A stretch of DNA of 63,788 nucleotides, counting the filler, from Hausera hauseri (Eukaryota), in NCBI GenBank assembly GCA_046269625.1. It is 11 parts of 11 records of this genome, joined end to end, with 100 filler letters (N's around TTAATTAATTAA, not from the genome) between each part and the next. Parts side by side here need not be neighbours in the genome. Positions count along the whole stretch, not along the records: positions 7,400 to 12,998 come from JBJURY010223410.1; 10 more parts are not named here. One strand, written 5' to 3'. Shown here in pieces: positions 5,701 through 49,930 of this stretch. The notes under the pieces were generated by a model, which saw nothing but the letters and a program-made list of their open reading frames with translations, searched no databases and had not been told where the DNA came from. Each line of letters opens with the position of its first letter. Positions within the stretch are counted from its first letter, which is position 1. Position numbers and translations under genes: made by a program.

Positions 5701-7299
5701 TGTGGGGAGAAATTGAGACAGCCAACACAAAGTCAGGAAATTCAGAAAAGACGAAAGATAATTGTTGTATAAACTTTTATAAATCTCATGAATAATTCTA
5801 TTTTACAATCATCAAATGAGATTGAGTTCAGAATGGTAGAGACCCGATCTACTAACATGGCAACCAACGCTTCAAGAGACTTCTTCAAGAAGAAATTGAT
5901 GCCAAAATAATTCCAGAAAGGTGACAACGTGGAAACCTTTATTGGAAAATGCAAGAGATACTTTGACTTCATAAAGATGTCGGAGACTGACCGAAAAACC
6001 GCGGTCCTGTGCCTGTTGGTGCAAGAAGCACAGGAAAAATAACATCTGGTGAGTCAGAAGGTTAAAGGGTACCAAAACGGTTGAGAACAGCCTTTGCAAA
6101 ACCCACAAAGCTGTGCGAATATCTAAGGGAGGCTTTGGACTACAGAATTTGGGGACAGAGCCGGCCTCCTACTTCAACCAAATCGAACAGCTGGTGAAGG
6201 AAATCTTTAGTCACAAAATAACACCGGAAGATTTAATAGAGGAATTGATGATTCACTGTTGTGATTATCCGCACATGAGAAAGGAAATCTACCGCAGTGA
6301 CGGAAAAAGGATAGAACAAATCAAAGCTAAAATAAGGAAAATTTAAGAAGTTGCAACAAAGACTGAAAAGATAAATACAGCCAGAGAATACACTAAAGAT
6401 GGTCGACGGAGTTATCGGGGTGTGGTGGTGCACAAATTTGACAAACCAAGACAAGAAAGGAGGGATTTCAAACTGCTAATTACGCAGGCAAAGAGGATGG
6501 TGAAATGCTGGTCGTGCCAGAAAGACGGGCATACAGGCCGGACATATACCTCCAACATGCACCAAGAGGTTTTGGTTTCGGGAAAGAAGGAGGCATTAAA
6601 AGATATTGCCCGGAAATAAACCTATAATATGCTACGGGTGTGGTCAGCAAGGATACAAGACGAAACTGCATAAACATAAAATGCCACAGATGTCACATTA
6701 CAGGGCACAGGGAAGAAGCATGTTACACAAAATTAGACAAGAGCAGAAGAGGAAAAAATACGAATACGGAGAATTTCAAAAGGGCGGGGTATGGCAAAAA
6801 AGACGTGGAGAGGGCGTGAACAGCAGGCACGCATTCGTTGCAAATATTGACGAAGACTATGAAAAACCCATCACAGAGTCGACAAACCCAAAAGGCAGGG
6901 CATTGACAGAGTGGAGCCTGTCGGGATATTATATTAAATAACGCCAAAGACTCCCAAAGTATTCAAAGGAATGTAAAAGATATTGAAGAAATGAAGGAAA
7001 GAACACAAGAAAAGGTACGGAGATTCATAAAAAAGGAAACGTTTGGGGATATAAACGAAGAAGTACGATTTATAGAAAATCAAAACGAGAGCCTCTATAA
7101 AGAGACCATTTTTTCCTTGGAAGGATTGACGGAAAGAGGATCACGTACGATAAACTATAAGGACAGCCAGGTATAAAAATAAAGATACAAGGTAGATGGG
7201 AAGACTGCCTATTGGACACATAGGCACGGGTGAACGTGATGAGTAGGAAGATTTTTGAAAGATTGATAGATGTTCAGCTGGAGAAATCAGATATCACGC
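5701..7299 (+). mobile_element. Gypsy family B, copy 1: 5' LTR (5701-5857), PBS, multi-CCHC gag, protease start; degenerate and cut by the contig end
   Basis: TGTGG...ACTAACA LTR followed by a TGGCAACCAACGC PBS-like sequence. Zinc knuckles CWSCQKDGH and CYGCGQQG. WEDCLLDT protease motif at ~7200. Co-linear with 29801-31667. Confidence 0.85.
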
Positions 7300-7399: not shown

Positions 7400-7823
7400 C
7401 CTGCCTGCGCTGTTATCTGGAGCTAATCGCCGCGCAATAAAAAGTAACGCAATATTCCATGGGCTCACATACGCGTTTGATAGTAGGAGTGTGTCACACG
7501 CAAGAATATGCCACATTAAGTGGCATTTATTGCTATAATTGCAAAATGGCTCATTGTAATTGGCAACAGTTTTTCTGGCGATTATTTCCACACAATACAA
7601 TTTTACCCCCGTAAACACGGTATTGTGTCCACACATACGGATGAAATACACACAGAAAACAAATAATAAAACATATTCAGATAGCCTGTTTGTAAAATAC
7701 AGAAATATTTGAAATATGTGTAATTTGATTGGATTTTTTGATTTAATGAGGTCTTACTTTTCAGGCTGCTCCTCAGCGAGGGCCATAATGTCACTAAAAC
7801 TCTGTTGAACCCATTCGAATCAA

Positions 7824-8156
7824 TGAAAGACCTGCAACACAAACACAAGTCACACACTGAACGCTTTAAGAAAAAGAACCAGAACCCTGCAGCAGGCCTA
7901 CCTGTGATCTCGACCCCTTTCTCGTAGGAACCCGGGTATCCGGCGCTGGCCATCACCACGGTAACTGCAGAGCTGCCCTGCTGCCACACGGGGGCGCTGG
8001 AGGCCAGGTTCCCACTTACGGTGTTCATGATGACGTCATAGAGGTCGCTCTGCATCAGGGGAAGCAGAACCTTGCATTCTGGGTCGCCAAAGCGACAGTT
8101 GAACTCCAGAACCTTTGGGCCCTGATTGGTCAACATGAGGCCTGCGTACAGAACAC
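7824..8156 (-). pseudogene. GART: Isolated fragment of GART (GARS domain): 255-nt exon 8156-7902, 70-nt intron 7901-7832, and the first codons (GLS) of the next exon; vertebrate/teleost-like
   Basis: GVLYAGLMLTNQGPKVLEFNCRFGDPECKVLLPLMQSDLY...AVTVVMASAGYPGSYEKGVEITG. Bounded by a ttctttccAG acceptor and a G/GTAGG donor, with a downstream acceptor tgtgttgcAG/GTCTTTCA. Visibly GC-richer than its flanks. Confidence 0.9.
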
Positions 8157-8301
8157 CTGGAAAGAAAATAGTTTACTTTTCATTTCCATCTAAATAATAC
8201 AAATTCGTCTAAAAATAAGAAGGAAAAATACACAAAATAAAGAAGGTTGTATATACACTAATCAAATTATTATTGTTAATCACTAAGATCAGGTTATAAA
8301 G

Positions 8302-10584
8302 TCAAGCGTCCAAGTCCACTTCTTCGGGATCACTGTCGGTTATCGTTGCCCAATCATCGGTAATTCTGATGGTCCTCGTCTTCTTATCATCATTGTTTCC
8401 TAGGTACATTGTTTCTTCAGTCGAAGTAGTTGATCTCAAGCTGGCTTTCAGTCTTTCAAGAATTGTGGTTTGATCCTTTCGTTCCATTCTCGAACGTTCC
8501 TTCCTTTCTGGCTCCAGTATCTCTTTCGTTTTTCCGAAGAGATGTTCGTACTCATCTTCTTTCATCCAGTCATATATGGAATTTTGTATATTCTCCTGAA
8601 TCGTAGCTTTGATAGGCACCCACATAGTTTTCCCGCTTCTTCTTACAAGAAGAGCTGACAACATATAAGCGCTGCTTTTCACATGAATATCGACAATTGT
8701 CCGACTCGAACTAAGCATTATGCAGCGTTTTTCTACATCCGTCTCATGGTTAACTTCTATTCTTAACATGAGTATTTTCTGAGCATCCCGATAGGGTACC
8801 AGGAAAAATTTAGTCCCTTCTGGTTGGTAATACTGGGCTGCTAGCATCTCGTTTCCTGCTGATTCCCAGTCCAATATCTGTTTTTGTCTAATCCCTTGTT
8901 GTATAGTGGCAGTTTTCTCAGGGATAAATTCGTCAATTACGACTGGTATTGTTATCCCATTGAGGAGTGATATTCGTAAGATTCCATTTACTTGTATTTT
9001 CCTTCTTTTTGGGTCCATCATTGCCATGATCAATTGACGCATAAGTTCATTCGTTTCTAAACTTTCGGTTTGAGTCGATATTTGAACTTGCGTTGTCGAG
9101 TCACACTTTCTTTTCAATATTTTCTTTTCTTCGCTTTCCTTTAAATCATCTGTCTCCCCTTCTGATATTTCGCAATTAGGTTCATCGAATTCATCTGGCT
9201 CGATCTTATCTTTTGTTGGAATTTTCTTAATTTCTTTTCCTTTTACTAGAGTGGCCTGGACATCAAATTGCCATTTCATTGTACCAATATATTCCGGTTT
9301 CCGATTCATTAAATCTCCATAATCAAGTATGTTTCCTTGGGAGTCAGTAGGAGTCCATTCATATTAATCGGTAGTTTTCTTGTGAGATTCTATAGTTAAC
9401 TGGAGTCTTCCTTTCGTAGTACTCAAAAATTGTGGAAATTTCAGCATCACTATTATTTGACATAGTTTTCTCTACATTCTTCATGGGGTCCACAACTGCG
9501 CAAGCTCTATTAATCAGTATGCAAAGCACATTAAACGTCTTGTGCGCTTCTAACGCCGCAATTTTGTATCCCAATATAAATTTTGTAACTTCAGCCCTAA
9601 GTTTGGGTGCATCCATTCCGGTTTGAATTTGATTTCAATCTATTCTGTGTCGGTTCCTGTTCAAGTTATGTATTGCTCTTCTTGGGGATATTATTTCGGA
9701 AAAGATAATGTCACCATTTGATTCCGCAATGATGATTTCAATGGGTAATGGAATCTGAGTTCCATTTGATCGTTTTCCATATGCGAAGGAAGTCGCTAGG
9801 TATCTGATGCTCTTAGCTCTGTCAGTTAATAAGATATTGCCTCCTCTTCTTAATTCTTCTTCATTTGGTTCACTTTTAAATTTTATTAGCTCTGGCATTG
9901 AGTATACTCTTTCTGCAACATAAAACTCAATAAAGCCAGTGGTTACATTTCTCTTGATACAGTTGTGATTCCTTTTGGGTCTACTGCATAGTTAATCTGT
10001 AACGATTCCTGATGGTCAATTTTCTCTATTCGATTTTCATTGCCATCTAATTTTTTAAAACTTATCTGACCTCTGCCTAATGCTATGTGAGCTGTTATTC
10101 CTTTATTCTCGTTCATCCATTGTGTGAGAGGGAGGATAGCATCAAAGTGGTATAATTTAAACGGCAGTAGACATCTGTTCCTCGTTTCACCATATTTGAA
10201 GTAATTTGGGAGTTTTGAGACTTCGTCAATAAATTGATTATCCTGATCGAGATGCGTGATTATTTTGTCGTAAAATGTGTACGACATAGTTTGGCGAATT
10301 ACGGAAAGTTTCCTATTTCCTTCTTTGTCATCTGTTTCTTTGTTTGTTCCGCTTCTTTGTCCAGAATCCTGAGTGCTTCCCGTTTAGGGAGCGTTTGCGA
10401 TAACTCGCCTGGAGCTTGAGTTTCCTGTTTCAGGAGCGTTGATTCCTTTTTTTGATGCATTCAGGCTTCCCATTTCGGGAGCATTGTTCTGGTTTCTTAA
10501 TTTCAGGCTTCCCATTTTGGGAGCATAGTTCTGTCTTCGTGGCAAGCTTCCCATTTCGGGAGCATTACTCTGATTTTGTGGCAT
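8302..10584 (-). pseudogene. Retroelement 3' accessory ORF (~760 aa when rejoined): NAPEMGS repeats, DEDDh exonuclease-like domain (~9830-9530), unknown C-terminal domain
   Basis: ORF pieces 10584-10384, 10287-9943, 9898-9635, 9616-9359 and 9309-8302 join through in-frame stops and two frameshifts. IIFSEIISPRRAIHNLNRNRHRID*NQIQTGMDAPKLRAEVTKFILGYKIAA resembles the REX4/ISG20-type DEDDh core. Confidence 0.6.
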
Positions 10585-10599
10585 TTTGTCAGCGATTAA

Positions 10600-12263
10600 A
10601 CTAAAAAATTGTTGAATTATATCTAATTTATATCTTTTCGTGTTAACACACAAGTTAAATTTGATTCGTTCTCTTATTTGATTGGACTTAATATTCTTAC
10701 AAAAATAATTCAAAACGATTGGTCCACCAATCATAAGGATTATATACCAATATGTTGCTAAAATTTCGTATGAGTTGTCTTTACTCAACCCGATTAATAA
10801 GAGAGGTATAAAACAGAATGTGGTTTGTGTATGTTCTTCTCCTCTCTGAATTTCATTAAGAATCAGTGGTATGTCCTTTGTGATATTCAGTGGTTCAATA
10901 TTGTTTAACTCCACTGTCTTATAATTTCGATTGCTTCGTATTATTTCGTAGTAATGAGATTCATTACTTCTCTTTCTTTTACATTTCATTTTATGACTGT
11001 ATTTTGCTACGATTAGACATATTGTACCGATTCCTAATACTACTGCAATTATCCACCAATATTTGAGTAAATACGATTCTGTAATGTCCGGTAAAGTTGT
11101 AGTTATTTTCATTCTTTCATCTTCGTTATATCTTATGTGTTGGTATTGATTTGCTAAGGGTGACGTTTTTATCGTCACTAATTTTGAATTATCTTTCGTG
11201 TATATTTTGATGAACTCATTTGTATCCGGTGTTAGGCCTTTACAAAAATTGCGTTTATTTTTGGAAAACTGAATCTCGACTTTCTCGTGAATACTTGTAC
11301 ATTTTATCCAACTTTTCTCATTTATTTCGTGAGAAATTATTATCTCGATTCTATTTGTATAAGGTTTAAATTTAAATTTAATTGGAAAATCCTTCATAAG
11401 TCTTCCTTTGAAAATATGCTTGTTTTTCTTCATTGTCTTCGTCACCGGTTTGATTACTTCTGCTACTGTTGTGGTTGCTTTGGTTACTTCTCTGGTTACT
11501 TTGGTTACTTCTATCTCTCCCCTACCCTTATGGGTGGTTTTAAGTGTAGAAATTGTAGGAGTATGTATAATATGTAAAATGGATTTCAATTGTGAACTTT
11601 TAATGAAGATAAAGATTGGTAACCGCGAGGAGTGTATTAGATTAGAAATATCTCCTTTGAAGTACATGTCAAAACGGATTATGCACCGAATATTGGTATG
11701 GAGAGCACAGCATACTCGAGGATGTGCACCATTGAGATGACAAAAATGTGGTTGAGGTACATGTCTGGGGTAAGCCTCATACCATATATTAAGCTCGTAT
11801 CCAAGAGGTAAAAGTTGCATAGTCCGGAAATTGAAACATTATTGTTTAAAAATTGTGCAGAGAACTCGTCATAAAGTAGCATATCTGATTTTGGTTTGTC
11901 TATGATATCCATGATATCCTGAAGGGGAACATGAACATTAATGTTCGGTTTCCATTGGATGATATATCCGTCAAGATCCAGAGATTTCAATAATACATAA
12001 TAAGTATAAGAAGTGTCGTAATCTAGGTGGCAACAAGTCTGAAGATGTTTTTCCGGGATAGTGCAACTAGTAGTTGTTTTATCTGAGGAGGTGAATACCA
12101 ACTTCACTTCATGGCGTGAATATACCGGTACGTGTGTTCTAAAGCAAATGCTGGGTTTGCTTCTATCAACGTGAAAAATGGTTGTGTATATAACCAATTC
12201 AGTAAAGTTGTAGGAAGCAGCTGCAAGTTGTGAGAAAAACGTCAATAAAATAAAGAATACCAT
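10600..12263 (-). CDS. Integrase-fused signal-peptide/membrane protein with FN3-like segments, a Thr-rich stalk and TM helices (frame change near 11680-11820)
   Basis: MVFFILLTFFSQLAAA signal-like peptide, in frame with integrase. FN3-like strand motifs HLDYDTSYTYYV and KGLTPDTNEFIKIY...VTIKTSP. EVTKVTREVTKATTT repeat. TM YWWIIAVVLGIGTICLIVA followed by KMKCKRKR. Confidence 0.55.
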
Positions 12264-12419
12264 GCCAAAGTATCTACCCGATATGAGGTGAACTCGGCAA
12301 CTCATAGATTCAAAGTTATCTATGTTTTGCCTCTGAGATAGAGCCGCTATCTTTGGTTCTACTTTATCTGATGATTCTAACTCTACCTGTCTTATGAAAT
12401 CATTGTATGACGTGGATGC

Positions 12420-12998
12420 TTTCGTGACTCTTTGTACGGACACAGCTTCATATTTGTTTGGTCCTTTTTGGATGAAAATAGTTTGTGGGCGTACATCTAC
12501 GACTTTGTATGGCCCTTGTCCTGTACGTGTCAATTTCAAGGATTTTCCTTTCTTTACCGCGGGGTAGTGTACCATTACATAATCACCAATTTTATAGGTG
12601 TGAGGACGCGCCTTTTTATTATACTGTTTCTTGTATCCAGCTTTATATTTTTGCTCAAATTCTTTGGATTCCTTTTGGAAATATTCAAGCCTCTTTAATA
12701 AGTCGTGATATTGTTCTTCCATATGGTCACTTGTCTTCAAGGAAGATGGCAACAACTCTGTATCCAAAGGTAACAGTGGTAATCGTCCGAACATTAAATC
12801 AAATTGTGAATGATTAGTACTCTTCGTAGGTGTAGTATTTATGGCAAATGCAGTCGTTTTTAAATGTTGATGCCAGTCTTTTTGGTCATGAGCAACTTTG
12901 GTAGACAGAATACCTTGAATTGTTCGATTCATCCGTTCGACCATACCATTACATTGTGGATGGTAGGATGTAGTTAGCAAATGTTTGCATTGAAATAT
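12420..12998 (-). mobile_element. Ty3/gypsy integrase, C-terminal half
   Basis: TTSYHPQCNGMVERMNRT, FDLMFGR and the GPY/F module KL...GQGPYKV. Confidence 0.95.
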
Positions 12999-14460: not shown

Positions 14461-14934
14461 AAAGTCCCAGCGTTGTAATTGTTGATCTGTTCAATCAGGG
14501 TGGTGAACATTAGAAAGGGCGTTCTGCGCCTTCGGAATGGTTGGCGTTTGACTGTCTAGTTTTGTAAAGTCCCTTAGGCTTTCATAATTCAAAAAGGGTG
14601 CCGCTCCAGTCTCTGTAGCCTTTTTTGTTGGCTCGAATAAAGCAAGGTTATGACGATCGAGCTCAATTTTAACGATGAAATTATACATAATTTTGGGACC
14701 GTTTATTATGGCTTTGGTTGGTGTAATTAAAAAGCAATATAATAGATGCACCGACCTTTTTGTTAGTTGTTTTTCGGTAATAACTACTTCGGGACGTAGT
14801 CTGATGATTTCGGGACAGTTTCTGGACGTGTTGCTCTTCTAGTGTACGAATCATGTTTATTTGATTCATTATTTCGTTGGATGTTTGTGATTCGCCTTTT
14901 TTATATTCAATGGGCATATCCATCAAAAGGATTC

Positions 14935-15477
14935 TTGGATTTTCGACTCTCCAAACAAGTTCTCGTTTTTGTCTAGCATCTTGCCAACTGTACATCACTG
15001 AGTGATTTGCGGGTAAAATTAATTTTTGATTTGTTCCTACTTGTTTGTAATGTATATCCATATTACCACCCAAATGATTTATCAACTGAACCAGTGCCAT
15101 ACCATCTTGATAGAGTTGTAAAACGATTAAATTCGCTTCTTCTATAATTTGAACTTCAACGAAAATTCCGATAAATTTCTTTTCCAAATTCATCAGTATC
15201 GAATGTGATTCATAAAATAGAAACGGTTGTGTAACAAGAATTTCCGACTGTTCGACTTTGCAACGCATCAGCATAGACTTATCCACTTTCGATCTAGACC
15301 AAAATGGTACTGCTTCACCAGACGGTACTGGTATCCAACCGACGTCTTCGATGATCTCATTACAATACAGTGTCACATCAGATTGATTTATAATCATGTA
15401 ATACGGTAAAAATGTGACAATTTTAGTCAAACCACTGCTGGATAAATTAATTTTTACTCCAACTTCATAAGTCATCG
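14935..15477 (-). pseudogene. VPS13: Intronless internal fragment of VPS13 (VPS13A/C-like adaptor-binding/SHR-BD repeat region)
   Basis: YEVGVKINLSSSGLTKIVTFLPYYMIINQS...VPFW...YQDGMALVQLINH...LPANHSVMYSWQD..RELVW matches the VPS13A/C segment from YQVGVTIDLSS to YTWADP..RRLKW. Confidence 0.85.
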
Positions 15478-16305
15478 GTTTCTTTTGTGCTTCGGTAATG
15501 ATTTCATTCAGAAGCTCGTTTTGCTGGCTATCGACTGTCTGGCCAATTTCGTTGACTGTGAATCAGAATATATTCCCCAACTTCCTGGAACGCTGTAGCA
15601 TATGTACTACCGGTAAAGTCCATTATTTTTATGTTCATCAGAAATCGGTAACTTCTTCGTTGCATTTTTCTTTTGGGCAAGCTTTATAGACCATTTTGGT
15701 CTCGTTTATGGAAGCTACTATGCTTCGAACTTGTAAATATTCCCCTTTATCGTCATTAGATGAACAGCATATCTGTTTCACCGTTACAGATTTGTTGTAG
15801 AAATTTCCCGTGGAAAATGAAGTGTTTTGACTAACGGAAAAGCTTTCATTTTCTTGGAACGTTGTAACAATGGCGCCTTTCAGAACAATCACCGAATAGG
15901 TATTTTCTTCAACACGATCAGAATGATCACTCCACAAAGTCAATCAAATAGTTGATTCACTGCAATCCAGTAAAACTACATCTCTTTTGTGTACTTCTCG
16001 ATTTTGTTTTGCTATCATTAAGGTTGTAGCAGGACCACCACTGTGAGCAATATCTGCAATATCTATGAAACTGCATTCGGGACGTTGTAAAACATCACAA
16101 ATAGCCACAAAATTATACATTTGTACTTTAAATTGAACGGTACCACTTAATTCAACAATCTCGATATCGTTTCTCATCGAAACTTCATATTCACTCTTCG
16201 TATTGCGATACTGCGGATTGGCTTGTTTAACATTTCCATTTGAGACGGAATAAGTTTTGCCTTCTTGTATTAAGTTGCAATACATGTCTACAGCTTCATT
16301 TGCAT
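15478..16305 (-). pseudogene. RPA1: Intronless, disabled RPA1 (RPA70) fragment spanning the end of DBD-A, DBD-B and a deleted DBD-C
   Basis: NEAVDMYCNLIQEGKTYSVSNGNVKQANPQY, REVHKRDVVLLD..*LTLW, YKACPKEKCNEEV and DFTGSTYATAFQEVGEYIL. Contains stops and internal deletions. Confidence 0.88.
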
Positions 16306-17159
16306 CAGTATTTCTCTCATGACCTTCAACTGCAAAGGACATTAAATTTATTTAAGTATCATCAAATTTTAACACCTTAGGACTATCAATTTTTAAACAT
16401 CGGAATCATCTGAATTAATATTCTGATATAAAGTTTGAGCTCTTAATCCTACTTGAACAGACATATCAGGTTTGCTGTTTAACACATTTTTATCTTCATG
16501 TTCACCTTTTTGGCCAGCCTTGGCAGGTTCTGCAAGTTTAACAAAATTTTCCGATTTAAGAAGCACTTTAATCCTAGTGCTGGAAATAGTGCTTTCATAA
16601 TTTAAAGTACCAGCTTTTGAATGTTCTGAGTGTTCTGTATGCTCTGACACCAATATTATCTTTTTTATATTCTTCAAGAAAAGAAATAAATCTTCCATAT
16701 ACTCCAAAAAAGAATGAGGCAAATAATTCTATATATAATTCCAAAATAAGTAAACGAGAAGGATAATCTCTAATAAAACAACAATTACCAACGTTTATTT
16801 TTTAAATTTTTAAATTTTCAATTATTATCGATATATTTACATTTATATATACATACATATATAGTCTGAGTATGAGTCTTTCTCGAACTGTTCGTCTACA
16901 AAGATCTGCAAGAGACTGATTCTGAAATGTACTGTCGACGAATACCTATCATCTGATGAGCTGACGATATATTTGCTGCCATTGGGTAAATATTTGACAC
17001 AGTAGAAACAATATTTATTCGTTGTGAAATTGATTTTGATTTCTTCAACAGGATCATGAGTTTTGTCCAACAATACACAGTTGTCTGCTTTTGTTACTCC
17101 ATGAACAACACGCGGGGCGAAAATAATTGCCAATATTAGTAACTGTACATGTTTTTTTA

Positions 17160-18795
17160 CATGAATTTTACAATCGACACTAGTAGTGGCAAGACGCAAT
17201 GATTCATTAAGCGAACTATGATAGCGATATTAAAGGCATCCATTTGATCGTAAACCATTTGCTTCAGAATTGCAACGTTATTTGCAATATACGAGCCATT
17301 ATGTTTTATAAATTTGAAATAAGAAATCCAGGCAAACAAATAAACGATTACAACTTGACATTTCGTAAAATCCTGACTAGTTGCAGCTGGACTGCGGTGG
17401 CACTCGAGCACGCAGCACCACACTACCCCCTGTTATGGAATGACACTATCGGTTGGCAAGCAAAAAGACAAAGTAGTTAGGTGTAGACGAACTATTGAAA
17501 GAAGCATTTTTTGATGTGATTGAAACAGAAACGTGGAAAGAATACGTTTTGTGGACTATTGCATCTTTGTATGGACAAGGCGTTGAATTTTGTCGACATT
17601 CTGTTCACTGCTGTATTTGCTAAAAGTGACTGTTTTGTGTTTTTTACTGTCATGTTTGATTGTTTGTTGAGATGGTTGGAAGAAAGTTAAATTTTGATTT
17701 GACGTGTCAGCAGCTTGAGAACTAGTTGGTATGTCGTTTTGCGTTGTCTTTTATATTGATGAAGGTTTTGGAGTATCAGGTTGTCGTGCAGGTAGAATGT
17801 GAGAAGAATTGAAAGAATCAAGGAAGTTTTGTGTGGATTCAGCTTAAGATTTCGGTGTATCATCGACGAAGAATGCAGGTTTTACGTTATTTATGTGTAC
17901 GTTTTGCTCTTTATCGTTTCTGAGTATGGTGACCGTGTGTGAACTTAGGTTGAGAACTTTAAATGGTCCTAAATAGTTTGGTTGGAATCCTGCAGGTGAA
18001 GGGTTTTTTATCCAAACAAATTTTGCGTTGAATAGTGAATCAGGTAAATATATTTTATCGCCATGTAATATTTTGCAGAAAGAATCCTGGCTTAACTGAA
18101 CGAAGGGATTTTGTGCAAATATAATTGTTTTGTCAGTTTGTGTGTTGTCCAAGTCGGTGAGCTCAAAAAGTGCCCGAATTGTGGTACCAAAAAGTGCTTC
18201 AGCAGGTGCGCAACCGGTGGTGGTAGACGGCGTGTTGCGCCAACCGAGTAAGAGAAAAGGGAGGATAGTTGTCCAATTCTTATGAAATTTGGCCAGGATT
18301 CTTAGCGAAATCTTGAAAGGGCGATAAAAGCGTTCTAATAAGCCGTTCGACTGGGGATGGTATGAAGTTGTGTGTATGTGATTTATGCCCAGTCGATTAA
18401 CTAGAGATTTGAATAGGTTCGATTTAAATTGGGTACCTTGGTCTGTAATTATATGGCGAGGTGAATCGAACTGGCTAATCCAAATCCTTATGAATGCATC
18501 GGCAATCGAGTCTGTGTTGATGAAGTACAAAGGGACGGCTTCAGGTCAACGAGACGCGCAGTCCATCATTGTTAAAATTAATTGGTGGCCGTTATCGGAA
18601 GGTAATGGGCCAACGATATCTATATGAACTGACTCAAAACAAGATGTACATGGAAAATGAAATAATGGTGGTTTAAGCTATTTAGCGACTTTGAATTTTT
18701 GGCAAGCTACGCATTGCCTAACCCAACTCTGTACATCAGACCTCATTGATGGCCATGTTACGTGACGTTTGAGAAGGCGGAATGTAGCCTTGGAA
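17160..18795 (-). mobile_element. Gypsy family A integrase, PPT (17423-17431) and 3' LTR starting at 17422 (distal LTR end undefined)
   Basis: VHIDIVGPLP, ITDQGTQF, HPQSNGLLERF and YLGPFKV motifs. GGGGGTAG precedes TGTGGTGC. Closely similar to 60990-62350. Confidence 0.92.
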
Positions 18796-19187: not shown

Positions 19188-20254
19188 AAATGATCCAACA
19201 GAGACAGTTTAGTGTTCTTGTAAGTTTCCTTCCCGAATTGCACAGTGGCATAGAAATGACCTTTAGTGACGCAGTTAAGATGAATTGTTGCCATGGAGAT
19301 ACTTACTTTGGAAGACGTAATCGACCATCCGTGTTTAAGTGCAATGTCAGTCGAGATGTAACTTTTACAACTGCCAGTATCGATCAGAGCGTTGAGTGAT
19401 ACTCCATTGACCAGAATCTTCACTATGGAATTTGAAAGGCCAGTTTGAGATCTGGTTGCTGTCACAGCGGAAGTTAAAGCACTGAGAGTAGACGCCCTTC
19501 GCTTAGGTTTTGATCTGCATACTCTTTGGTAGTGCCCTTTTTTTCCACAGGAATTGCACGTGGCGTCCTTAGCAGGGCATTTAGAGCGGAAATGCCTGTT
19601 GTTGCTTCCACAGAAAAAACAAGTGAATGTCCTAGACATGGCGGCGCTTACTTCATCTTCATTCACGCTTTCGGTATTAGGCACCGGAGGGATCGCGGCG
19701 ACTGAAGCCTCAGCGGGGGTATTGGAAGACGCCTCGAAGCACATAATATGATGTAAAGCGTACTCCATGGTCCGAGCTTCTTCAAAAGCTTGTTGTAGAG
19801 ATAGAGAAGTTTTCTCCAACAGCCTTTGTCGGATGGCGTTGGACGTCAAACCCGCTATGAAGGCGTCGCGTATTGCTTCTTCTTTCCGTACTTCAGCCGA
19901 TACTTGCTTGAAGTTACAGTCTCTCGCTAAGCTCCGTAATTTCTGCAAATACTGATCAAGAGACTGTCCCTTTTCTTGCTTTAGAGTTGCCAGTTGGTGC
20001 CTGGCAAAAACTTCATTTTTAGGTTTGACGTAAATACCGCTGAGTGTCTCTACTATCTGTTCGAACGTTTTGCATTCAGCCACTATCTGATAAACGGCAG
20101 GGCCAATAAAATTGATAATCAGCTTCTTCTTGTCTACGTCAGGGCAGACAGATACAAAGTTATCGAATGTCTGCAACCAATGCGTCCACTTTTCTGAAGC
20201 GGAGGGGCTGTATGGGTCAACATCGAAGCGTTCCGGTCGAAGTAGTCTCTCCAT
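19188..20254 (-). mobile_element. Gypsy family C, downstream tandem copy: gag and protease, truncated at ~19188
   Basis: MERLLRPERFDVDP...W.HW..TF, the CFFCG..H.R..CPA...C..CGKKGHY..VC knuckles and LIDTGS. Co-linear with 23150-23970. Confidence 0.93.
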
Positions 20255-20710: not shown

Positions 20711-23700
20711 TTATAGGAATGTCTTGTCTTCAGCATCAGGCACCACCTCCGATGGCTTTTCTCGAACGGCAGTTGTCCGTGTATGTGTATTACTTTCTAC
20801 GGCGATCTCACCCGAAACGTCGGTTTCGAGTGCAGGTACCTCTGAGAGCTGTGTACTTCTAGCTGGCGCTCGAGCCAGTCGATGTAAAGATACAGTCTCT
20901 TCTCGGCCGTCGGACAGGCGCCCGTGTGCGTAAAGTGGATTACATTCAAGCAGTTCCGCTTCTTCGACGAGGGAGTCATACTTTGAAGTTCTATCCTGTT
21001 TCTGCAGCAGAACTGGGCCTGGTTGTGTAAGCCACGTAGGAATGGATACTCCAGACGTTGACTTGCGATTGTAACTAAACAATCGCTCATGTGGTGTAGC
21101 GTTTGTAGATGTACAGAGAAGTGATCTTATGGAGTGGAGGGCGTCAGGTAGGACGGCCTCCCATTGGGCGATTGGCATGCCCCTAGACTTTGTAGCTAAC
21201 GTAATAGTCTGCCACAGAGTCCCATTCAGTCTTTCAACTTGGCCGTTGGCCCGAGGGTTATAAGCGGTAGTGCGGCTTGTACAGATTCCCTTTGAATGTA
21301 AGAATGTCTTGAGCTCATCAGACATGAATGAAGTGCCTCTGTCAGAGTGCACGTAAGAAGGCATCCCAAAGATAGAGAAAAGCTGCCATAGACATTTAAT
21401 GACAGTGGCCGACGAAATGTCGGAACAAGCAAAGGCGAAAGGGAATCTAGAATATTCGTCAATAATTGTTATAAGGTATTTGTTGCGGGTGCATGATGGC
21501 AGAGGACCTTTGAAGTCAACACTTAGTCTTTCAAATGGCTGAGTAGCTTTAATGAGAGGCCTAAGAGAGTTCTTTACGAAACGCGGTTTGACTTCAGCGC
21601 AAACTTCACACTGGTTGATGACAGTCTTAATGTCTTCAGCTGCAAAGGGTAAGTTTTTGGAGCGAACGAAATGTAACATTCGAGTTACACCAGGGTGACA
21701 AAGTGTGTCATGCAGCTGCCGAAGATCAGTTCTAGACATTGCTGATATATAGTTATTTGTATATAAGGCATCTGCAGCCTTGTTTTGTTCTCCAGGTCTG
21801 TACTGGACATCAAAATGAAAGCAAGAAAGTTCAAGTTTCCATCTCTGAATTTTATCATTCTTAATTTTCCCTTTGTGCTTTTGATCGAACATAAAGGCTA
21901 CCGACCTCTGGTCAGTGATTAAGGTAAAGTGCCTGCCGATTAAGTAGTGCCTCCATTTTCTCAGAGCTTCCACTATCGAAAAAGCTTCTTTCTCTATAGC
22001 TGGTAAGTGCCTCTCGCTTGAAGATAAGGTGCGAGAAAAGAAAGCTACTGGCCGACCATCTTGATTGAGGGTAGCAGCAATGGCTACATCAGATGCATCC
22101 GTCTCAACTACCAATGGGCGGTTGTAATCTATAGTGGACATGGCGGCTGTGGCAAGTTCATCTCTGAGATCATCAAATACTGTTTTTATATGGTCGGGTA
22201 GAGGAAATATCTGATTATGAACCAGATGATGTATTCTTTCAGAGAAGCGAGGGATCCACTGGGCGTAGTAAGCCAGCAAACCTACAACTCTCCTTTGAGC
22301 TTGTAGATTATGTGGTGGAGAGAGATCTTTTAAAACTTGAAATCTTTCAGGATCGGGCTTGAGTGATCCATGGGTTACTTCGTAGCCGAGTAGACGAACA
22401 CTGGAGGCAGAGAATGTACTTTTAGCTTCGTTGAATGTGATCCCCCGTTTCTTAGCAGCGTTCAAGAATCTTTGAAGATTTTGATTGTGGTGCTGTTCAT
22501 CATGCCCACAAATCGTGACATTATCCACGTAAGCATACGTGTCCTCGAGCCCTTCTTCCTTGATAAATGCGTCAATTGTCCTTTGAAAGCTGGCAACACC
22601 ATTTGTGACACCAAAAGGTATCCTGCGAAATTGATACAGCTTGCCGCCAGTTTCAAATGCAGTGAATGGACGTTCCTCCTCCCTAATCGGTATCTGGTGG
22701 AAAGCACTTTGTAAGTCAAGTGTGCTGAAGACGGAGTATTTTGAGATCTCTTCTACCATCTCATCAATCCGAGGCAGCGGGTACGCGTCGAGAAACGTGT
22801 AGCGATTGATAGTTTGACTATAGTCAATCACCATCCTTATCTTATGTCTCTCGTTAGTCGTGACTAAAACTTGAGCTCGCCATGGGGATTCTGAGGGCTC
22901 GATAATCTCATTTTTCAATAGTTCATGTATTTCCTTTTCAATGAACTGTTTGTCCTGGACAGAGTAGCGACGTGACTTAGTAGCTATAGGAACACAGTCA
23001 GGAGACAGGTGTTTAAACAGATATGGAGGGTCAACTTTAGCAGCTTCCAACGCACAGATTCGGAACTCCGGTCGAGTTCCACTGAAAGGAAAAATAACCT
23101 TTTCATGCAGGCTCAGAAAGTCAATGCCTAGGATAACATCAGCACACAAATGATCCAACAGAGACAGCTTAGTGTTCTGATAAATTTCATTACCATATTG
23201 CACAGTGGCAAAGAAATGACCTTTAGTGACGCAGTTGAGACGAGAAGAAGCCATGGAGATACTAACTTTGGAAGACGTAACCGACCATCCGTGTTTAAGC
23301 GCAATGTCGGTCGAGATGTAACTTTCACAGCTGCCAGTATCGATCAAAGCGTTGAGTGATACTCCATTGACCAGAATCTTTACTATGGAATTTGAAAGGC
23401 CAGTCTGAGATATGGTTGCCGTCACAGAGGAAGTTAAAGCACTCAGAGTGGACGCCGGCCCTTTTTGTTTTGACCTGCATACTCTTTGGTAATGTCCTTT
23501 TTTACCACAAGAATGACACGTGGCGTTCCTAGCAGGACATTTTGAGCGGAGGTGCCTGTTGTTGCTTCCACAGAAGAAACACGTGAACGTCTTAGACATG
23601 GCGGCGCCTATGTCAGATTCCTTCACGCTTTCGGTACTAGGCGCCGGGGGGAGCGCGGCGACTGAAGCCTTAGCGGGGGTATTGGAGGACTCCTTGTACC

Positions 23701-28227: not shown

Positions 28228-29760
28228 TGATTTAACTTGGTTAATTATACTTCTCGTAATTTTGTGCCGAGGAGCTTTTGATTGTGATTATTCCACTGTC
28301 GGAGCATTGTATTCTCTCGTATACCTAGAAAAACATCCGTATGCGGAACAGGATAAGTTTGTTTTTGAAGAAACTAAAAAGTATAGATTATACCAAGAGA
28401 ATCTGTTTATTAGAGTTAAGGCACTTCAATGTAAACTGACTAAACAAATTAAAAAATAGTACTGTGGAAAAGTACATCGACATTCAACACATTTTAATGG
28501 CTATACCTAACGAACCAAAAGAACTAACAACGGATCAGTGTCCAGAAGCTGTGAAGATGGGGAAATTAAAAATAAATAATACAGTCGAAATAGGAGCAGC
28601 CGTAAACGCTATTATATATCACACTATCAACGAAGAAGGTTACACTGAAAGTAATGGAAATTGTTCAGAAAATACAGTTGATGGTGTACAAGCGCCGTAT
28701 ACACTAACTATTATTGAAAAATATATTTCATTTGTTGTAATAAAATATTTAATTATTACAACTGACTGTAAATATGGTACAGAATACTGTAGAACCACTG
28801 ATTCTATTATCGCCTGGACTGCACCTACAGTGGAATGTAATTTGGCATTTCTAAAGAAAATCAGTTTTAATGTAGCTAAAGAAATACGACTTAGTACACC
28901 ATTTGCACGGCGAATTGCCGGAAACGAAGACGAAGAAAAATAGAATCAAATAGAAACACCAACAATTATGATTTCGTCGGAAGTTGAAGATTCAATAAGA
29001 TTCATTCAAAAAGAAAAAGTAAAAAAATGTGGAGTAGAAAACGTTTATGCCACTAATATGGAGAATATATATTACATAAACGGAAATAAGTAATGCTTTA
29101 AAAGCGGTTTATCCTACAGAAGTTAGACCAATGAATTATTACAATGGAAAAATGGATTATTTATTTCATTATATGGTAAACAACCAATAACAAATCTATA
29201 AAAATATGATCCAAAACAATTGCCTACTGGCTGAAGATTTACTAGCATTAAAAGTGGCCGTAGATGATATAAATCCAGTTATAGATACCCTGATACTTCC
29301 AACTAAAGTAAAAGGTATGTTTAGACGGGTATCAGGAGAAGCTATTATAACATTCAGATGTACAGAGGTAGTAGTAGATTTAGTGGATATGAAAGTACGT
29401 AACAACGAAAAAACAGTACAGTATAAAGGTGAAACAAGATACGTGGCCCCGATTACTAGAGTTATGCTGCAAAAATGTGAAGAATCTAGTAAAGTGAGAA
29501 ATTGTTATGAGGAAATTGCTCCCTTATACAAAATAAATAAGGACGACTGGGTAGCTTTACCCGCACGAAATAAAGCTGTAACACCAAAAAAGCTCAATAT
29601 GTTTTCCTTAAAAAGGGACTTGGTTTTTGACACTTATAAAATGTTTTACATTGAGGCATATACGATGTTCAAACTGTGGAGAAATTGAGGCATTATTTGT
29701 TATTTCCTAAACAAATTCAAAGATTAATAATTTTTTATACTCAGAAGGTTACCGATACGT
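28228..29760 (+). pseudogene. Class III fusion glycoprotein (chuvirus-G / herpes gB-like retroelement env) relic
   Basis: Signal-like WLIILLVILCRG then AFDC. Further motifs: ALQCKL, NGNC, CKYGTEYC..IIAW..EC, CGVENVYATN, NNCLL..NP..GMFRRVSGEAIITFRC, YKGETRYVAPITR and C...IAPLYKIN..W. Contains stops and frameshifts. Confidence 0.8.
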
Positions 29761-29800: not shown

Positions 29801-31667
29801 TGTGAGGAGGAATTGAAACTGATATTAACGTTTAAATGTAAATCAAAGATAATTAAATAAACAGCCAACAGAAAGTTAGACAATTCAGAAAAGAAGGAAA
29901 ATAAGACTCATTCCCCGAGTGAAGGAGATAAATCTTATATAAAACTTTTGTAATAAATCGATTATGGATAATTCTATTTTACAGTGATCAAGTGAAGTTG
30001 ATGTCGGGACGGAAGAGATGCGATCTACTAACATGGCGACCAACGCTTCAAGAGACCTCTTCGAGAAAAAATTGATGTCCAAAGAATTACAGAAAGGTGA
30101 AACGTGGAAACCTTTATTGGAAAATGCGAGAGATACTTCGACTTCATAAAGATGCCGGAAACGGACCGAGAAACCGCGATTCTGTGCCTTTTGGCGGAAA
30201 AAGCACAGAAAAAATACAGTATAGTGAGCCAGAAAGTGAGAGTGTACCAAAAATGGTTGGGAAAAGCCTTTTCAAAACCCACAACGCTGTGTGGAGATGT
30301 GCATGAGGCCTTGAACTACAGAATGAGGGGGACAGAGCCGGCCGCCTACTTCAACAAAATCGAACAACTGGTGATGGACATCCTTAGCCACAAAATAACA
30401 GCGGAAGCTCTAACAGAGGAACCGATGATCCACTGTTGCGACAATCCAGAGATGAGGAAGGAAATCTCCCACAGTAATGAAAAAAAAGTAGAACAAATCA
30501 AAGAGAAGATACGGAAAGACCACGAAGTGGCAACAAAGACGGAAGAGATAAACACAGTCACAGAATACACTAAAGAGGGTCGACGGAGTTACCGGGATGT
30601 GGTGGTGCACAAATTTGACAAACCAATACAGGAAAGAAGGGGTTTCAAGCTGCACAATACGCTGGCAAAGAGTATGATGAAATGCTGGTCGTGCCAGAAA
30701 GACGGGCATACATGCAAGACATGCAACTTCCAACATGCATCAAGATGTTTTGGCTGCGGAAAAGAAGGACACATTAACGGGAATTACCAGGAAAGGAAAC
30801 CCATAATATGCTATGGGTGGGGTCATCAAGGACACATAAGACGAAACTGCATAAACATAAAATACAATACATGTCACAATAGAGGGCACAGGGAAGAAGC
30901 ATGTTACACAAAATTGGACAAGAGCAGAAGAGGACAAAATACGTATGCCGACAATTTCAAAAGGGCGAAGTATGGTCAAAAAAGATATGGAGAGAGGTTG
31001 AACAGCAGGCACACATACGTTGCAAATATTTATGTAGATTATAAAGAATCCATCATCGATTTGACAAACCCAAAAGGCGGAGCCTCGACAGAAGTGGAGC
31101 CAGTCGGGGCATTATATCAAACAACTCCAAAGACTCCAGAAATATTCAAAGGAATGGACAAGGTATTGAAGAAATGAAGGAAGGAACACAAGAAAAGGTA
31201 CGGAGGTTCATAAAAAGGAAACGTTTGGGGACAGAAACGAAGAAGTACGATTTGCAGAAAGTGAAAATGACAGCCTTCATGAAGCGAGGGTTTTTCCTCT
31301 GGAAGGATTAACGGAAAAGAGTATCACGTACGATAAACTACAAGGACGGCCAAGTATAAAAATAAAGATGCAAGATAGATGGGCAGACTGCCTATTGGAC
31401 ACGGGGCACGGGTAAACGTGATGAGTAGGAAGATTTTTGGAAGATTGACACATGTCCGGCTGGAGAAATCAGATATCATACTCCGTTGTGCAAATGGTAG
31501 CTCCCTAGACTGCATGGATGACCTGTCCGTAAATGTGGACCTCAAGGGAGTACAGAAGCGCGTAACTTTCATAGTAGTGACAGACATATTACCAGAAATA
31601 ATAGGAGGAATGGAACTACAAAAGACTTTTGGAATCGAATTAGGTTGGAGACAGAAAGACGAAGAGA
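29801..31667 (+). mobile_element. Gypsy family B, copy 2: 5' LTR (29801-30033), PBS TGGCGACCAACGC, gag with four CCHC-type knuckles, protease
   Basis: ORF 30104-31177 carries CWSCQKDGHTCKTC, CFGCGKEGH, CYGWGHQGHIRRNC and YNTCHNRGHREEAC. DCLLDTGARVNVMS spans a frameshift at ~31385-31420. Confidence 0.9.
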
Positions 31668-34300: not shown

Positions 34301-35194
34301 TAAATTTGCGTTGAGATGTATGATAGTACCGTGATGGCTAAGTTAGAAGTCAGAGGAACCAAGGATAGAAAAACTGCGAATCTAAAGGTTGGGGATGTGC
34401 GGGTGTGTTGTATGGAGGGTATATGTGAAGGTTGTTATAAAAAAGAGAATAAAGATGGGAGCAGTGATGGGAGTGGAGGCGTGATTTGTGGCCGACATCG
34501 AAGGTGCCCTCGACCGACAGGCGTAGAGTTGGCAGTCGGGTGCCCGAGTCTCCCCTCAAACGGCGCAATATATTCGGTAAATATGTCAGCTTGTTTAATT
34601 GGTGTTATACGTTTTGTAGTGACAATATTCGATCGTGAAACGATTGAAATGAGCGCATAGGGTCAATGGGTGTCATCTCAGACAAATTGGAGACTCGGAT
34701 CTGCCAACAGCTGTATATTTAGATATATACAAAGAAATTTCGGGCATTATTTAGGCAAATAACTTATAAATATCGCCAATGATAGAAACCTTATGCGGTA
34801 TTACATTGATAATAATTTCGTCTCCCGATCCGCATAGAGAGATTTGAAACGGTTTGTTGTTGAAAGTAATAAGACGAAATCCGATTGGTGGTATCTGAAT
34901 TACTATTTCATCGAGTTTTAAGTGAGAATTTTTGTAATGAAATTTAACGGTACGGACTTTATCATTCATAGACATACAAAGTTGAATAAGATTCAAATAA
35001 CATTTATACTTTTCCCCGTCAAGAGTAATTTTGTTGTCTATTACGTCAGAGTAGAAAAACTTAAACAGACGTGGATTGGTGCCGATACAATGGAAAAATG
35101 GATAATCTGGAATTTCAATTTTCCGTAATTTCTGGAAATCATTTTAACCTCCCTGCACAACCCACAAACCATGTTAATGCCAAGTTTGATTAAT

Positions 35195-35800
35195 CTAGAT
35201 GACCAATGAATTCTTCGGGACTTATAACCAACGGAATAGACGTAATTGCGATTATGGTAATTACCCGAATGAATCTGTTGTTGCAGCAACTGGCCAATAA
35301 ACAACTGAATAAGTGATTCAATTCGTAAATTGAAACTACGATCATCATTTATAACTAAGGCGACTTGTTGGGACTCATTTCGTGAAATGTACACGCGCCT
35401 ATCAACGGTAAGCGAATTCGACGGCAAACCTAGATCTTTATAGGAATGTGCCGGACAATACATAGTTCTATCAGTATAATAAACGCAATTTTGCTGCAGG
35501 GGACAAGGCACATTGAATTTCGACGTACATCAAGAATAAAAACATCTAATATCCGCACCGGATTTGCCATACGACAAACAAATGGTTTTTGCGGCGGACA
35601 CAAATGATTCGGGAGCGTTATTGAATGTACCGCACTGCATTTCAAAAACACTGTTACACCACAATGCACAATTAACATGGAGCCATTTGTTCGTGTCAAA
35701 ACACAACAAACGATCAGCACCGTTTTCCGACAAATAATGGCTTCGTTTACAGAGCGAACAAATTCGATTATCGGCGAGATCGTTCCGCCTTAAGACACAT
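35195..35800 (-). pseudogene. KMT2C/KMT2D (trithorax-related) fragment: extended PHD and start of FYRN; upstream Ser/Lys-rich sequence to ~37140 may belong to it
   Basis: DNRICSLC...GADRLL..DTNKWLHVNCALW..VFE, then MYCPAH...VDRRVYISRNE..QVA and LRIESLI...IGQLLQQQ...VGYKSRRIHWS. Has an in-frame stop and lost Cys/His residues. Confidence 0.85.
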
Positions 35801-37349
35801 TTAGAATTGAAAGAGGGCTTTTTAAATTGATTATCGGAAATAACCAACGAGTGACAAGATGACTGGTCGGTAAGAATTTTGGGGTGGAACGTTAAGTACT
35901 TTTTCATTTTGTAATTTTTTTGCGTTACCGACGCAGTTGCTGTCGCAGTCGCTGATGACGACTTTAATTGCTGCAAATTCAATTTCTATTTTACGAATAA
36001 CTTATCACAAATGACGAAATTACCGGATTTCTTGGACAACTGTTTCGATTTCGACAAGGATCCTTATAAAATCGCCGACATTTCCGATGGTTGTTCCTTA
36101 TCAATGTTTGATTAGTGATCTCTGCTAGTCGGTAGCAGAGCAAATACTATATCCAGAGGTATTGAGGATTGTTCCAACATTTTTGTCGCCGACAATTTAT
36201 CGCGGATATCATTAAAATTAATTATATTCTCCGTTCCTTTTATTAAAACATCTTTATCCTGCACATTTTTGATGTAAATTCTTCGGTGATAACAGAAGAG
36301 TCATCAGACAGATTAACTGTTTCCGGAAACTCTATTTTACTTTGTTCGCAATCCAGAATATTAAAGCTTAAATCACATTTTTCAAGAATTAAAAACGGCT
36401 TTTTGTTTGAGTCAATAATAGAGTTTATTTCATTATCTTCATAGTTGTCTTCGTCTATTTCAGGACGTATAAGCGCCGAACAAATTGGACTATTTTTGGC
36501 TGTAGATATTGAGGATGATTCATTTCTGTTTACAGGCGAATACTTTTATCAGTAGACAAATCCAAATGAAATTTACTGATTTCGAATGACTCTTCCATAA
36601 TTTCCAATGCTGGCTTATTTCTTTTCCATTGCTTACGTTTGGCAGAAACAACAGCCGTTACTTCAATAGAATCTTCATTATCTAGTGAATGTGAATTTTC
36701 TGATGATTCTTTGGTTGAATCTACACTCACAGAAAGTTCGTCCTTGGAACACTCAGTTTTAGACGATCTAATTCTAGTACATCTCTTTTGTGTTAGAATA
36801 ACCGAATCTGAGAAGAATCTTTTACCTTTCGCTTTTTAATGGCGATATTTTGCTGCATATTACTCTTCAATTTATCAAATTGTCACTTGAAGATTCTACG
36901 TTGTTGAATTTATTGCTTTCTGGATGTTCGATTTTTCTGTCTGAATCATTAATCTTTTCAGCATTTAAAATCGTAGATGAAACAGGTTGATAAACATTTG
37001 AATTTTTTCTCTTTTAGCTGATTTATCAGAAATCGATTTAGATAAACTTTTCTTCATTATTCGCTTATCCGTCAAAAGTTTTGGAGATTCCTGAAATTCC
37101 TTCACTGGTTGACGTTCTGAAGAAACCGTCATTTGACATAGATTTTTATCAATTGTGCTAATGAGTTATCTCCATCGGGGACAATCCACATCCAATAAAA
37201 TCCATTTGTCATATATTTTTGCATATTTTTCGGCTTCTGCTTTGAGTTTTTCCAAGTCAAACTGGATATTAATCCGATCTAAATCGTCCAAATCCACTCG
37301 CTTCGACAATTGCTGAATGGTGTATGTTACGTCATGAGGATTTATTCCA

Positions 37350-37984
37350 GTTTCAAAAGTCATATTTCCTACCTGGATGCTAACAACTTGTATGGATGGG
37401 CAATGAGCGCCCCATTGCCATATTATAACTTCAAGTGGGTTGAGCATCCTGAAGACATCCCTATCCTGGACCTGGATCCCACTGGAGATACGGGCTATAT
37501 ATTGGAGGTGGATATGGAATATCCGGCTTCCATCCACACAAGGCACCAACAGCTTTCTTTCCTCCCTGAAACCAAACCACCGCCCCATGGAACGCAGCGA
37601 AAGCTGCTCTGTCATTTGGGTAATAGGGAGAGGTATGTAGTCCACTATATCAATATCCAGCAGGCAGTTAAACATGGACGTCGCATTACTAAGGTCCAAA
37701 GAGCCCTACAGTTCAGACAGTCCATGTGGCTGCAGTCCTACTTTGATCTGAACACCAAGCTGCGGACAAATACCAAAAATGATTTCGAGAAAGATCAATT
37801 TAAGCTGTAGAATAACAGCGTTTTTGCAAGACGATGGAGAATACCTGCAACAGACTCAACATCGAGCTAGTATGTAACTGGAAGCGGGCAAAGAAGCTTA
37901 TTGCCAGGCCTAACTTCTACAGCAGCACCATATATGCTGAGAACTTGGTAGGCATCCATATGCTGAAAACAGCATTAGTATTCA
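37350..37984 (+). mobile_element. Polinton/Maverick-type protein-primed family B DNA polymerase fragment
   Basis: YLDANNLYGWAMS.PLP, GYILEVDMEYP, YVVHY.N.QQA, FEKDQFKL*NNSVF / KTMEN and KKLIARPNF. Contains a stop and a frameshift. Confidence 0.92.

Positions 37985-43871: not shown

Positions 43872-43948
<77 letters not shown>
39802..43948. repeat. Long degenerate (CT)n/(CTCTGT)n/(CTCTCC)n polypyrimidine simple-repeat tract with internal N gaps
   Basis: The + strand is almost entirely C/T with interspersed G. There is a perfect (CTCTCC)n run at 39802-39875 and (CT)n at the right end. Confidence 0.97.
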
Positions 43949-49646: not shown

Positions 49647-49930
49647 NNNNNNNNNNNNNNNNNNNNNNNNNNNNNNNNNNNNNNNNNNNNTTAATTAATT
49701 AANNNNNNNNNNNNNNNNNNNNNNNNNNNNNNNNNNNNNNNNNNNNTTAAACATAAGTATTGCTAGTGGGTTGTTGAAATTTTCATGGCGAGTTTTTCGA
49801 GCCAAAAATCACGAGAATCGGTTTAACTGTTCTCAAGATATAAGCTTGACAGACTCCCATGCTTTTTTATTTTTAAAATTGTTTACCTTCAGCAAATTTA
49901 AACAGTTTTATTTTACAAACACATAACATG

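Follow-up and report, generated by a model that had tools for sequence, protein, structure and literature searches.

The Hausera hauseri assembly GCA_046269625.1 raises the question of how a fish-like piece of GART, a purine-synthesis gene, came to lie in the non-coding tail of a retroelement. A preliminary description of the locus had set two origins side by side, a host-to-parasite capture of vertebrate DNA or pre-mRNA inside an LTR element and a host/parasite chimeric contig. We analysed one window, a stretch of 63,788 nt in which separate contigs are joined by N44-TTAATTAATTAA-N44 spacers; PSMA5, the clearest cellular gene in it, is not physically linked to the contig that carries the insert. 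Here we show that the insert is of fish origin, that both of its boundaries can be placed, that it retains introns, and that it lies in sense orientation inside the element. The GART insert is a well-defined sequence feature and probably a recent, functionless capture across phyla.

A poeciliid-type GART segment with retained introns

Compared with public runs, window positions 7828-8203 (minus strand), 376 nt, are a GART segment of poeciliid type in which introns are retained. The parts of the insert and the spacer before it, in the direction of the gene, are as follows.

8204..8301, minus strand: AT-rich spacer of 98 nt (GC 0.235) from the ORF stop to the insert, unlike fish sequence past 8203; 5' junction at 8204/8203
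7828..8203, minus strand: whole insert, a poeciliid-type GART genomic segment, gapless in X1, X2 and X3
8157..8203, minus strand: 3' part (47 nt) of the upstream fish intron with its acceptor AG; no listed difference to X1/X2, 1 to X3; GC 0.23
7902..8156, minus strand: GART exon of 255 nt, comprising the end of the GARS ATP-grasp domain and the start of the C domain, with Q28K in RFGDPExQ; GC 0.58, GC3 0.75
7990..8059, minus strand: mosaic tract of 70 nt, in which 11 of the 13 differences to X1/X2 are clustered
7832..7901, minus strand: intact 70-nt fish intron, GTAGGC...TTGCAG; no listed difference to X1/X2, 1 to X3
7828..7831, minus strand: first 4 nt (GTCT) of the following fish exon and 3' junction; the loose ends of X1-X3 at 7828 continue as GART

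One contig in each of the runs X1, X2 and X3 covers 7828-8203 without a gap, with 13, 13 and 15 differences, respectively. Past 8203 these contigs depart from the window, presumably into the remainder of the fish intron, and past 7828 they run into the next GART exon, translating ...TRLQDAGLQ. Neither end of the insert coincides with an exon boundary. The match in a fourth run, X4, extends over 7875-8163 with 5 differences, and both introns differ. To X1 and X2, the two intron parts of the insert together show 0 listed differences over 117 nt. The exon peptide matches human GART at E=6e-36 and is recognized by Pfam as GARS_A (2.6e-12) and GARS_C, with both domains incomplete (only profile positions 165-194 of 194 and 1-25 of 92, respectively), and no further GART piece is found elsewhere within the window. 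In a scan of 2811 windows of 200 nt (mean GC 0.376, sd 0.063; simple-repeat contig excluded), the insert region was the GC-richest (0.60) and no second GC-rich, CpG-poor, fish-like patch was seen among those of the other contigs; GC3 is 0.75 in the exon versus 0.32-0.38 in the element frames.

Much of what the preliminary description had read from this region is borne out: an exon with intact splice sites (8156-7902, acceptor ...ttttctttccag, donor GTAGGC), a 70-nt intron after it (7901-7832), and a distance of 145 nt between the stop of the accessory ORF (8304-8302) and the exon. The fish affinity suggested there now holds at the DNA level, introns included, although “teleost” proved too broad for a donor of poeciliid type. 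The exon with its 3' intron had been called teleost-like; the fish segment also holds 47 nt of upstream intron, which carry it to 8203. The “first three codons” of the next exon shrink to one codon and a third, as only GTCT (7831-7828) is fish; the third codon (Ser) is coincidental, because X1-X3 read ...TRLQDAGLQ there. We also considered whether the 255-nt exon might be the spliced product of two vertebrate exons, and hence proof of an RNA intermediate, an idea prompted by what we take to be a human GART exon boundary inside the matching region; the X1-X4 contigs cross it gapless, with no intron there. X1, roughly double the other runs in number of letters, also holds a second, more distant GART-like contig over 7899-8151, with a depth of 9.45, a different intron and a 75-nt skip at this presumed boundary that decides neither way.

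With respect to the donor, the insert peptide is ~95% identical to Poecilia protein: identities reach 80/84 in Poecilia mexicana and P. formosa, 79/84 in P. reticulata and P. latipinna, 77-78/84 in Xiphophorus, and at most 75/84 in other fish among the rows shown. A tree of 34 rows, from which one chosen row without the anchor motif was dropped, groups the insert with Poecilia and Xiphophorus (support 83/76, unstarred). In seven clusters, no listed member (for the largest, 15 of 25 are listed) was a named fish protein that matches the insert or the X1-X3 type. When 37 words of the stretch were looked up in a run index, the best of the 24 listed runs contained 0.54 of the words and none contained the full set, nor did any RNA run among the 24 carry the stretch; the comparisons given here cover four of them (X1-X4), and not X5-X12 or the 12 rows whose share is below 0.2. 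In Xiphophorus hellerii, more than one locus is recorded as GART-like or partial GART (proteins P0241, P0244-P0249, P0251 and P0253).

The differences to X1 and X2 are far from evenly spread. Random placement reproduced their clustering in ~1 in 100,000 draws, or in 4 in 10,000 if confined to the exon, for a tract that was picked post hoc; outside the tract, the insert differs from X1/X2 at just 2 of 306 nt. X4 shows none of the 11 tract changes (3 of its 5 differences are listed), so the insert's flanks resemble X1-X3 and its middle resembles X4. The simplest reading of this mosaic would be that gene conversion or introgression had altered the tract in the donor fish, and GART-like duplicates in poeciliids could explain it through gene conversion. 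A possible alternative is an assembler jumping between two host haplotypes, which leaves the junctions unexplained.

One further change, C-to-A at 8073, replaces Gln with Lys (Q28K) and is absent from all four runs. Gln occupies this site of RFGDPExQ in 134 of 135 fetched GART motifs, many of these rows being isoforms of the same species, and also in the three PDB alignments shown, one human and two bacterial-type. Because Gln is near-invariant and the 8073 change is private, Q28K is unlikely to occur in a live host allele. M34 was considered as another private post-capture change (L in 116 of 116 aligned fish rows) and was dropped, X4 showing no difference at 8055. The piece is, judged by its sequence, a passenger that would not encode a working enzyme, because it has no start, comprises ~85 of ~1010 codons, and lacks the Gln that is conserved in RFGDPExQ.

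The carrier element and the resident genome

The insert lies on a contig of 5599 nt (7400-12998, GC 0.374), in a non-coding tail between the ORF at 9363-8302 and a polypurine tract (PPT), 217 nt short of the latter. Apart from the insert and its spacer, the contig holds the following features.

12339..12998, minus strand: C-terminal half of an integrase of Ty3/gypsy type, truncated where the contig starts (12998); 13 homologues
10384..12305, minus strand: possible membrane-protein gene in two overlapping frames, with low-confidence folds (pLDDT 54 and 50)
9359..10383, minus strand: three more orphan frames (9634-9359, 9991-9635 and 10383-9943) with no family match
8302..9363, minus strand: accessory orphan ORF, 353 codons stop to stop, with relatives ~88-93% identical in X1, X2 and X4
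7611..7827, minus strand: 217-nt stretch with an exon-like piece (7827-7758), a GTAAGA donor at 7757 and an AT-rich, 72-nt intron-like stretch to AG at 7686
7601..7610, minus strand: candidate polypurine tract GGGGGTAAAA
7400..7599, minus strand: presumed start of the 3' LTR (TGT...), from its position after the PPT, truncated by the contig end 200 nt on

The integrase frame has 13 matches among 1034 candidates, nearly all of them RT/RNaseH/integrase polyproteins, the best being an arachnid record (E=2e-34, 36% identity). Pfam rve_3 is matched only weakly (E=0.0055), and a GPY motif is present, which we take to be the C-terminal GPY/F motif of gypsy-type integrases. At the other end, both the PPT at 7610-7601 and the TGT at 7599-7597 are there as first described, and a PPT followed by a presumed LTR starting with TG is what a Ty3/gypsy element should have; no second LTR copy exists within the window. 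By these sequence features the carrier is a gypsy-type LTR element, and its composition is not fish-like.

Among the genes of the element, the 353-codon ORF has no homologue among 1.84 billion representatives, in Pfam or in the ESM Atlas. We nevertheless read it as a genuine element gene, because its relatives are ~88-93% identical in three runs and, of the 24 differences listed from a table with 110 further rows, 16 are synonymous. The frames at 12305-10384 are laid out as a hydrophobic leader, a seven-strand beta-sandwich, a Thr-rich stretch, a second beta-rich region, a transmembrane segment, and a tail with Tyr. Leads from the ESM Atlas score 0.78-0.81, under the reliability line, and Foldseek rows are FN3/C2-like or cytokine-receptor-like, none of them significant; fold searches with two parts of these frames gave nothing at E<=0.001 (best Z 7.3). 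On such modelled folds, the region could be a receptor-like gene captured long ago. A 19-nt core, in five imperfect copies spaced 39-45 nt apart, occurs at 10377-10577, where an NAPEMGSL-like peptide is repeated at the end of a 484-codon frame.

The 217-nt tail piece abuts the insert in the same orientation as the GART exon, and its exon-like part with GTAAGA, mentioned in the preliminary description, could be located, with the donor at 7757. It is possibly a second captured piece. None of X1-X4 covers 7611-7827, a gap that carries no weight as evidence, and no match to it was found in PDB sequences, Pfam or Rfam; a TTI1 Pfam match over this exon-like piece (E=0.0033) fell below the cutoff and was taken as chance. 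Low-depth contigs in X1, X2 and X4 match ~7566-7608 (~40 nt), and four of those in X1 carry other letters upstream of 7608. Shared sequence over ~7566-7608 followed by divergence upstream supports the PPT/LTR boundary and shows that copies vary in their tail.

The presence of element relatives in the fish runs allows a further reading, in which the element resides, or once resided, in fish and captured GART in a fish cell by ordinary within-genome capture; the contig would then come from fish, or the element would have passed to the worm with its load. Such an origin has the merit that an unspliced transcript is easiest to reach in the cell making it, and the element encodes a possible surface protein. 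The depth of the relatives compared with that of fish GART is ~3 versus 44 in X2, 2-5 versus 40 in X4, and 2-11.5 versus 12.7 in X1, and the X1 range nears that of GART, which fits a fish-resident element; the X2 and X4 relatives, at ~1/10 of single-copy depth or less, and X3, with no element relatives in the bins shown, argue against it. The low-depth relatives in X2 and X4 are probably co-sequenced parasite DNA and not fish germ line, contig depth being no measure of copy number. Further points against residence in fish are the lack of a close fish homologue of the integrase and, more weakly, the absence of CpG depletion: the observed/expected ratio of the element is 0.87, and none of the 10 C>T/G>A differences listed falls at CpG, with few sites to judge from. 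Overall, we find a fish-resident element quite unlikely.

No nucleotide sister of the element was found within the window, and a viral scan gave none. The single match of a metagenome scan (L001) was considered as a sister and set aside as due to chance, lying in a gene beside a phage terminase-like frame. The relatives in X1, X2 and X4 match window 8314-9000 as well as 7566-7608; fish runs of this sort are an untapped source of sister copies.

The contigs of the window are mostly retroelement pieces from a short-read, fragmented and repeat-rich assembly. PSMA5 (27260-26436, minus strand) has introns of 47 and 46 nt, its last exon is ~70% identical to its best single-copy matches, and its EATKLG motif occurs in 15 of 120 homologues, of which the named ones are all flatworms. 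Short introns of a monogenean are reported to have modes near 32 and 58 nt (PMC4040987). We infer from these sequences that the resident organism is a parasitic flatworm, monogenean-like. The insert contig appears to belong to this flatworm, a tie made by composition only (CpG o/e 0.87 versus 0.89-1.05 in contigs with cellular genes).

Against this background, the exon could be supposed to be the organism's own GART, or a functional, horizontally acquired purine-synthesis gene, as its open frame and intact splice sites over 255 nt might suggest. The first version, which the preliminary description had named as the outcome that would overturn its reading, is refuted, the exon grouping with poeciliids and the PSMA5 of the window being flatworm-type. 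Protein identity to Poecilia is 95%, versus ~70% for the best matches of the resident PSMA5 exon, the window holds no other piece of GART, the next exon ends after 4 nt, and Q28K speaks against function; taken together, this explanation is hardly conceivable. To our knowledge, parasitic flatworms lack de novo purine synthesis, a point not used as evidence here; a paper showing that absence was not found in the literature searched.

Capture or chimeric contig

Our preferred reading, held with moderate confidence, is a recent, functionless host-to-parasite capture, in which 376 nt of host GART DNA came to lie in the tail of a gypsy-type element of what looks to be a flatworm parasite of livebearer fishes. 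The main competitor is a library or assembly chimera, in which ligation, amplification or a misjoin in the assembly graph put host fish DNA from the sample into a contig of a worm retrotransposon. We consider the chimera rather unlikely, and the indirect evidence as a whole favours capture over it.

The flanks on both sides of the insert are non-fish, so that two junctions lie 376 nt apart, and an artefact needs two independent misjoins at that distance. That none of the 24 listed runs has the identical sequence also speaks for a real capture. No shared word able to seed a misjoin is visible at either junction. Similarity across the junctions did not exceed chance (shuffle p values of 0.07 and 0.95), and equally high control scores were obtained for 8% of 643 adjacent element 30-mers and 24% of 244 AT-rich controls. 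No other GC-rich, CpG-poor patch is present among the 2811 windows of other contigs, and a chimera must also yield Q28K at a near-invariant site.

Several observations are equally at home with a chimera. The near-identity of both intron parts to X1 and X2 is one, and the low divergence outside the tract (2/306), which contamination would also yield, weighs against capture, as does the nature of the private 8073 change, a single C-to-A of a common damage type seen in a comparison of 4 of 24 listed runs. Identical stretches flank the mosaic tract, so an assembler could switch host haplotypes there, and the assembly is of the short-read, fragmented and repeat-rich kind in which this may happen. 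No read or contig of X1-X4 spans either junction, and no second, independent carrier of the insert exists among the 24 listed runs. Relatives of the element occur in fishes resembling the donor, which suggests that the donor species could be the very host of the worm and that host DNA was thus possibly in the library; assemblies of monogeneans are known to suffer from contamination by host DNA (PMC4040987). On our preferred reading, the junctions would be present in the living animal.

Possible routes and known systems

If the capture is real, the likeliest route, with a little better than an even chance, would be a double template switch. The worm would take up host cells or tissue, a fish template would reach a cell in which the element replicates, and reverse transcriptase would switch to a fish template, either a transcript not yet spliced or a fragment of DNA, and then back, with the second piece possibly chained during template switching. 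The retained introns imply that the template was a nuclear precursor or DNA, which is the chief departure from the double-switch model of PMC5131818. The sense orientation, the non-coding site and the abutting exon-plus-intron-like piece fit multi-template capture by LTR elements as set out in PMC5131818. The alternative, to which we give not quite an even chance, is that a break in this copy or its cDNA was repaired with ingested host DNA. Break repair accounts better for the introns, though not for the site or the orientation.

Retroviral v-onc transduction is a familiar precedent for host sequence recombined into a retroelement genome; its 5' junction is often intronic, it normally loses internal introns, and its cargo is expressed. 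The GART insert likewise lies within a retroelement genome, but keeps its introns, and appears not to be expressed. In LTR-mediated retroposition in animals, the template is described as the animal's own mRNA, retrocopies are detected by intron loss, and the switch points show short stretches of sequence in common (Tan et al. 2016, PMC5131818). As in that work, a partial cellular gene lies inside an LTR element, pieces can be chained and the end can fall anywhere; unlike those retrocopies, the insert comes from a donor in another phylum and keeps introns. The gene fragment is indeed internal to the element, but intron loss is missing: the insert retains its 70-nt intron and 47 nt of the one upstream, and holds no spliced junction, as X1-X4 too have no intron within the exon. 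Nor does a parent gene in the same genome emerge, with a poeciliid-type donor, a flatworm-type PSMA5, and contigs linked by composition only. The conflict of similarity and phylogeny with the resident genome is that expected of horizontal transfer.

Transfers between animal phyla mostly concern self-moving transposons, or old genes whose route is lost. A transfer of 5S rDNA from Xenopus to Protopolystoma xenopodis has been proposed (PMC12294053), and resembles the present case in that DNA of a vertebrate host turns up in the assembly of a parasitic flatworm and contamination is the chief alternative; that case involves a multicopy RNA gene with no carrier named in the text available, whereas here a protein-gene fragment lies in a retrotransposon with two sharp junctions. 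DNA crossing between hosts and helminths has been tied to retroelements, with an RTE common to snail and Schistosoma (PMC13155389), AviRTE in birds and filarial nematodes (PMC4844689), and host-helminth retroelement transfer also reported in PMC6542046. In the RTE and AviRTE transfers, as reported, the element itself moves, unlike the worm-type element here, which holds non-mobile host DNA as cargo. A horizontal origin has also been proposed for cki in parasitic flatworms (PMC12693960), which is likewise a metazoan-to-flatworm gene transfer; as presented there, cki is ancient and functional with its route unknown, whereas the GART insert would be recent and non-functional, with a possible route. 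In the literature searched, supplements and most subscription papers aside, we found no report of a vertebrate protein-gene fragment in a flatworm LTR element, or of this insert, and PMC7986700 and PMC9804148 offered nothing that bears on it.

If real, the insert would mean that DNA of an ordinary vertebrate gene had passed to a parasite very recently, and it would still be within its possible carrier element and with both junctions readable; a host-to-helminth route of gene flow would become directly testable, and the insert would keep a trace of the fish on which the parasite lineage had fed. If an artefact, it would show that host filters acting on whole contigs overlook short internal host segments.

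A bolder version of the capture, which we regard as very unlikely, would have the element form retrovirus-like particles that display its beta-sandwich membrane protein. Where the worm feeds, these would infect cells of the fish's skin or gills, undergo recombination there with fish transcripts that are still unspliced, and carry their load back to the worm germ line. Under that shuttle, the low-depth relatives in fish runs would partly be somatic infections, the variable tail upstream of the PPT would record repeated captures, and vertebrate-to-flatworm gene flow would be ongoing.

Other contigs of the window yielded observations of their own. At 28440-29688 (plus strand), two frames match Pfam Monjiviricetes_fusion (E=8e-4 and 2.4e-12) and are adjoined by a gag-like frame at 30101-31177; the region is probably an env-bearing retroelement with an RNA-virus-type glycoprotein, and a frame at 49277-49702 resembles these fusion frames by eye. 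A fragment of type B DNA polymerase at 37283-37810 (plus strand; PF03175, E=5.6e-7) is presumably Polinton- or adintovirus-like. Fragments of VPS13, RPA1 and a FYRN-domain (KMT2-like) gene, at 14681-15562, 15944-16351 and 35041-35985 (minus strand), lie beside retroelement pieces and are, by view, mostly intronless. A degenerate CT/CTGT simple repeat of ~4 kb, with scaffold gaps and low CpG, occupies 39802-43948 and may be of host or resident origin. Finally, pairs of retroelement copies on different contigs, with ~75-92% identity, were seen at 5718-7296 and 29861-31478, at 17523-18795 and 61021-62291, and at 19188-19487 and 23148-23447.
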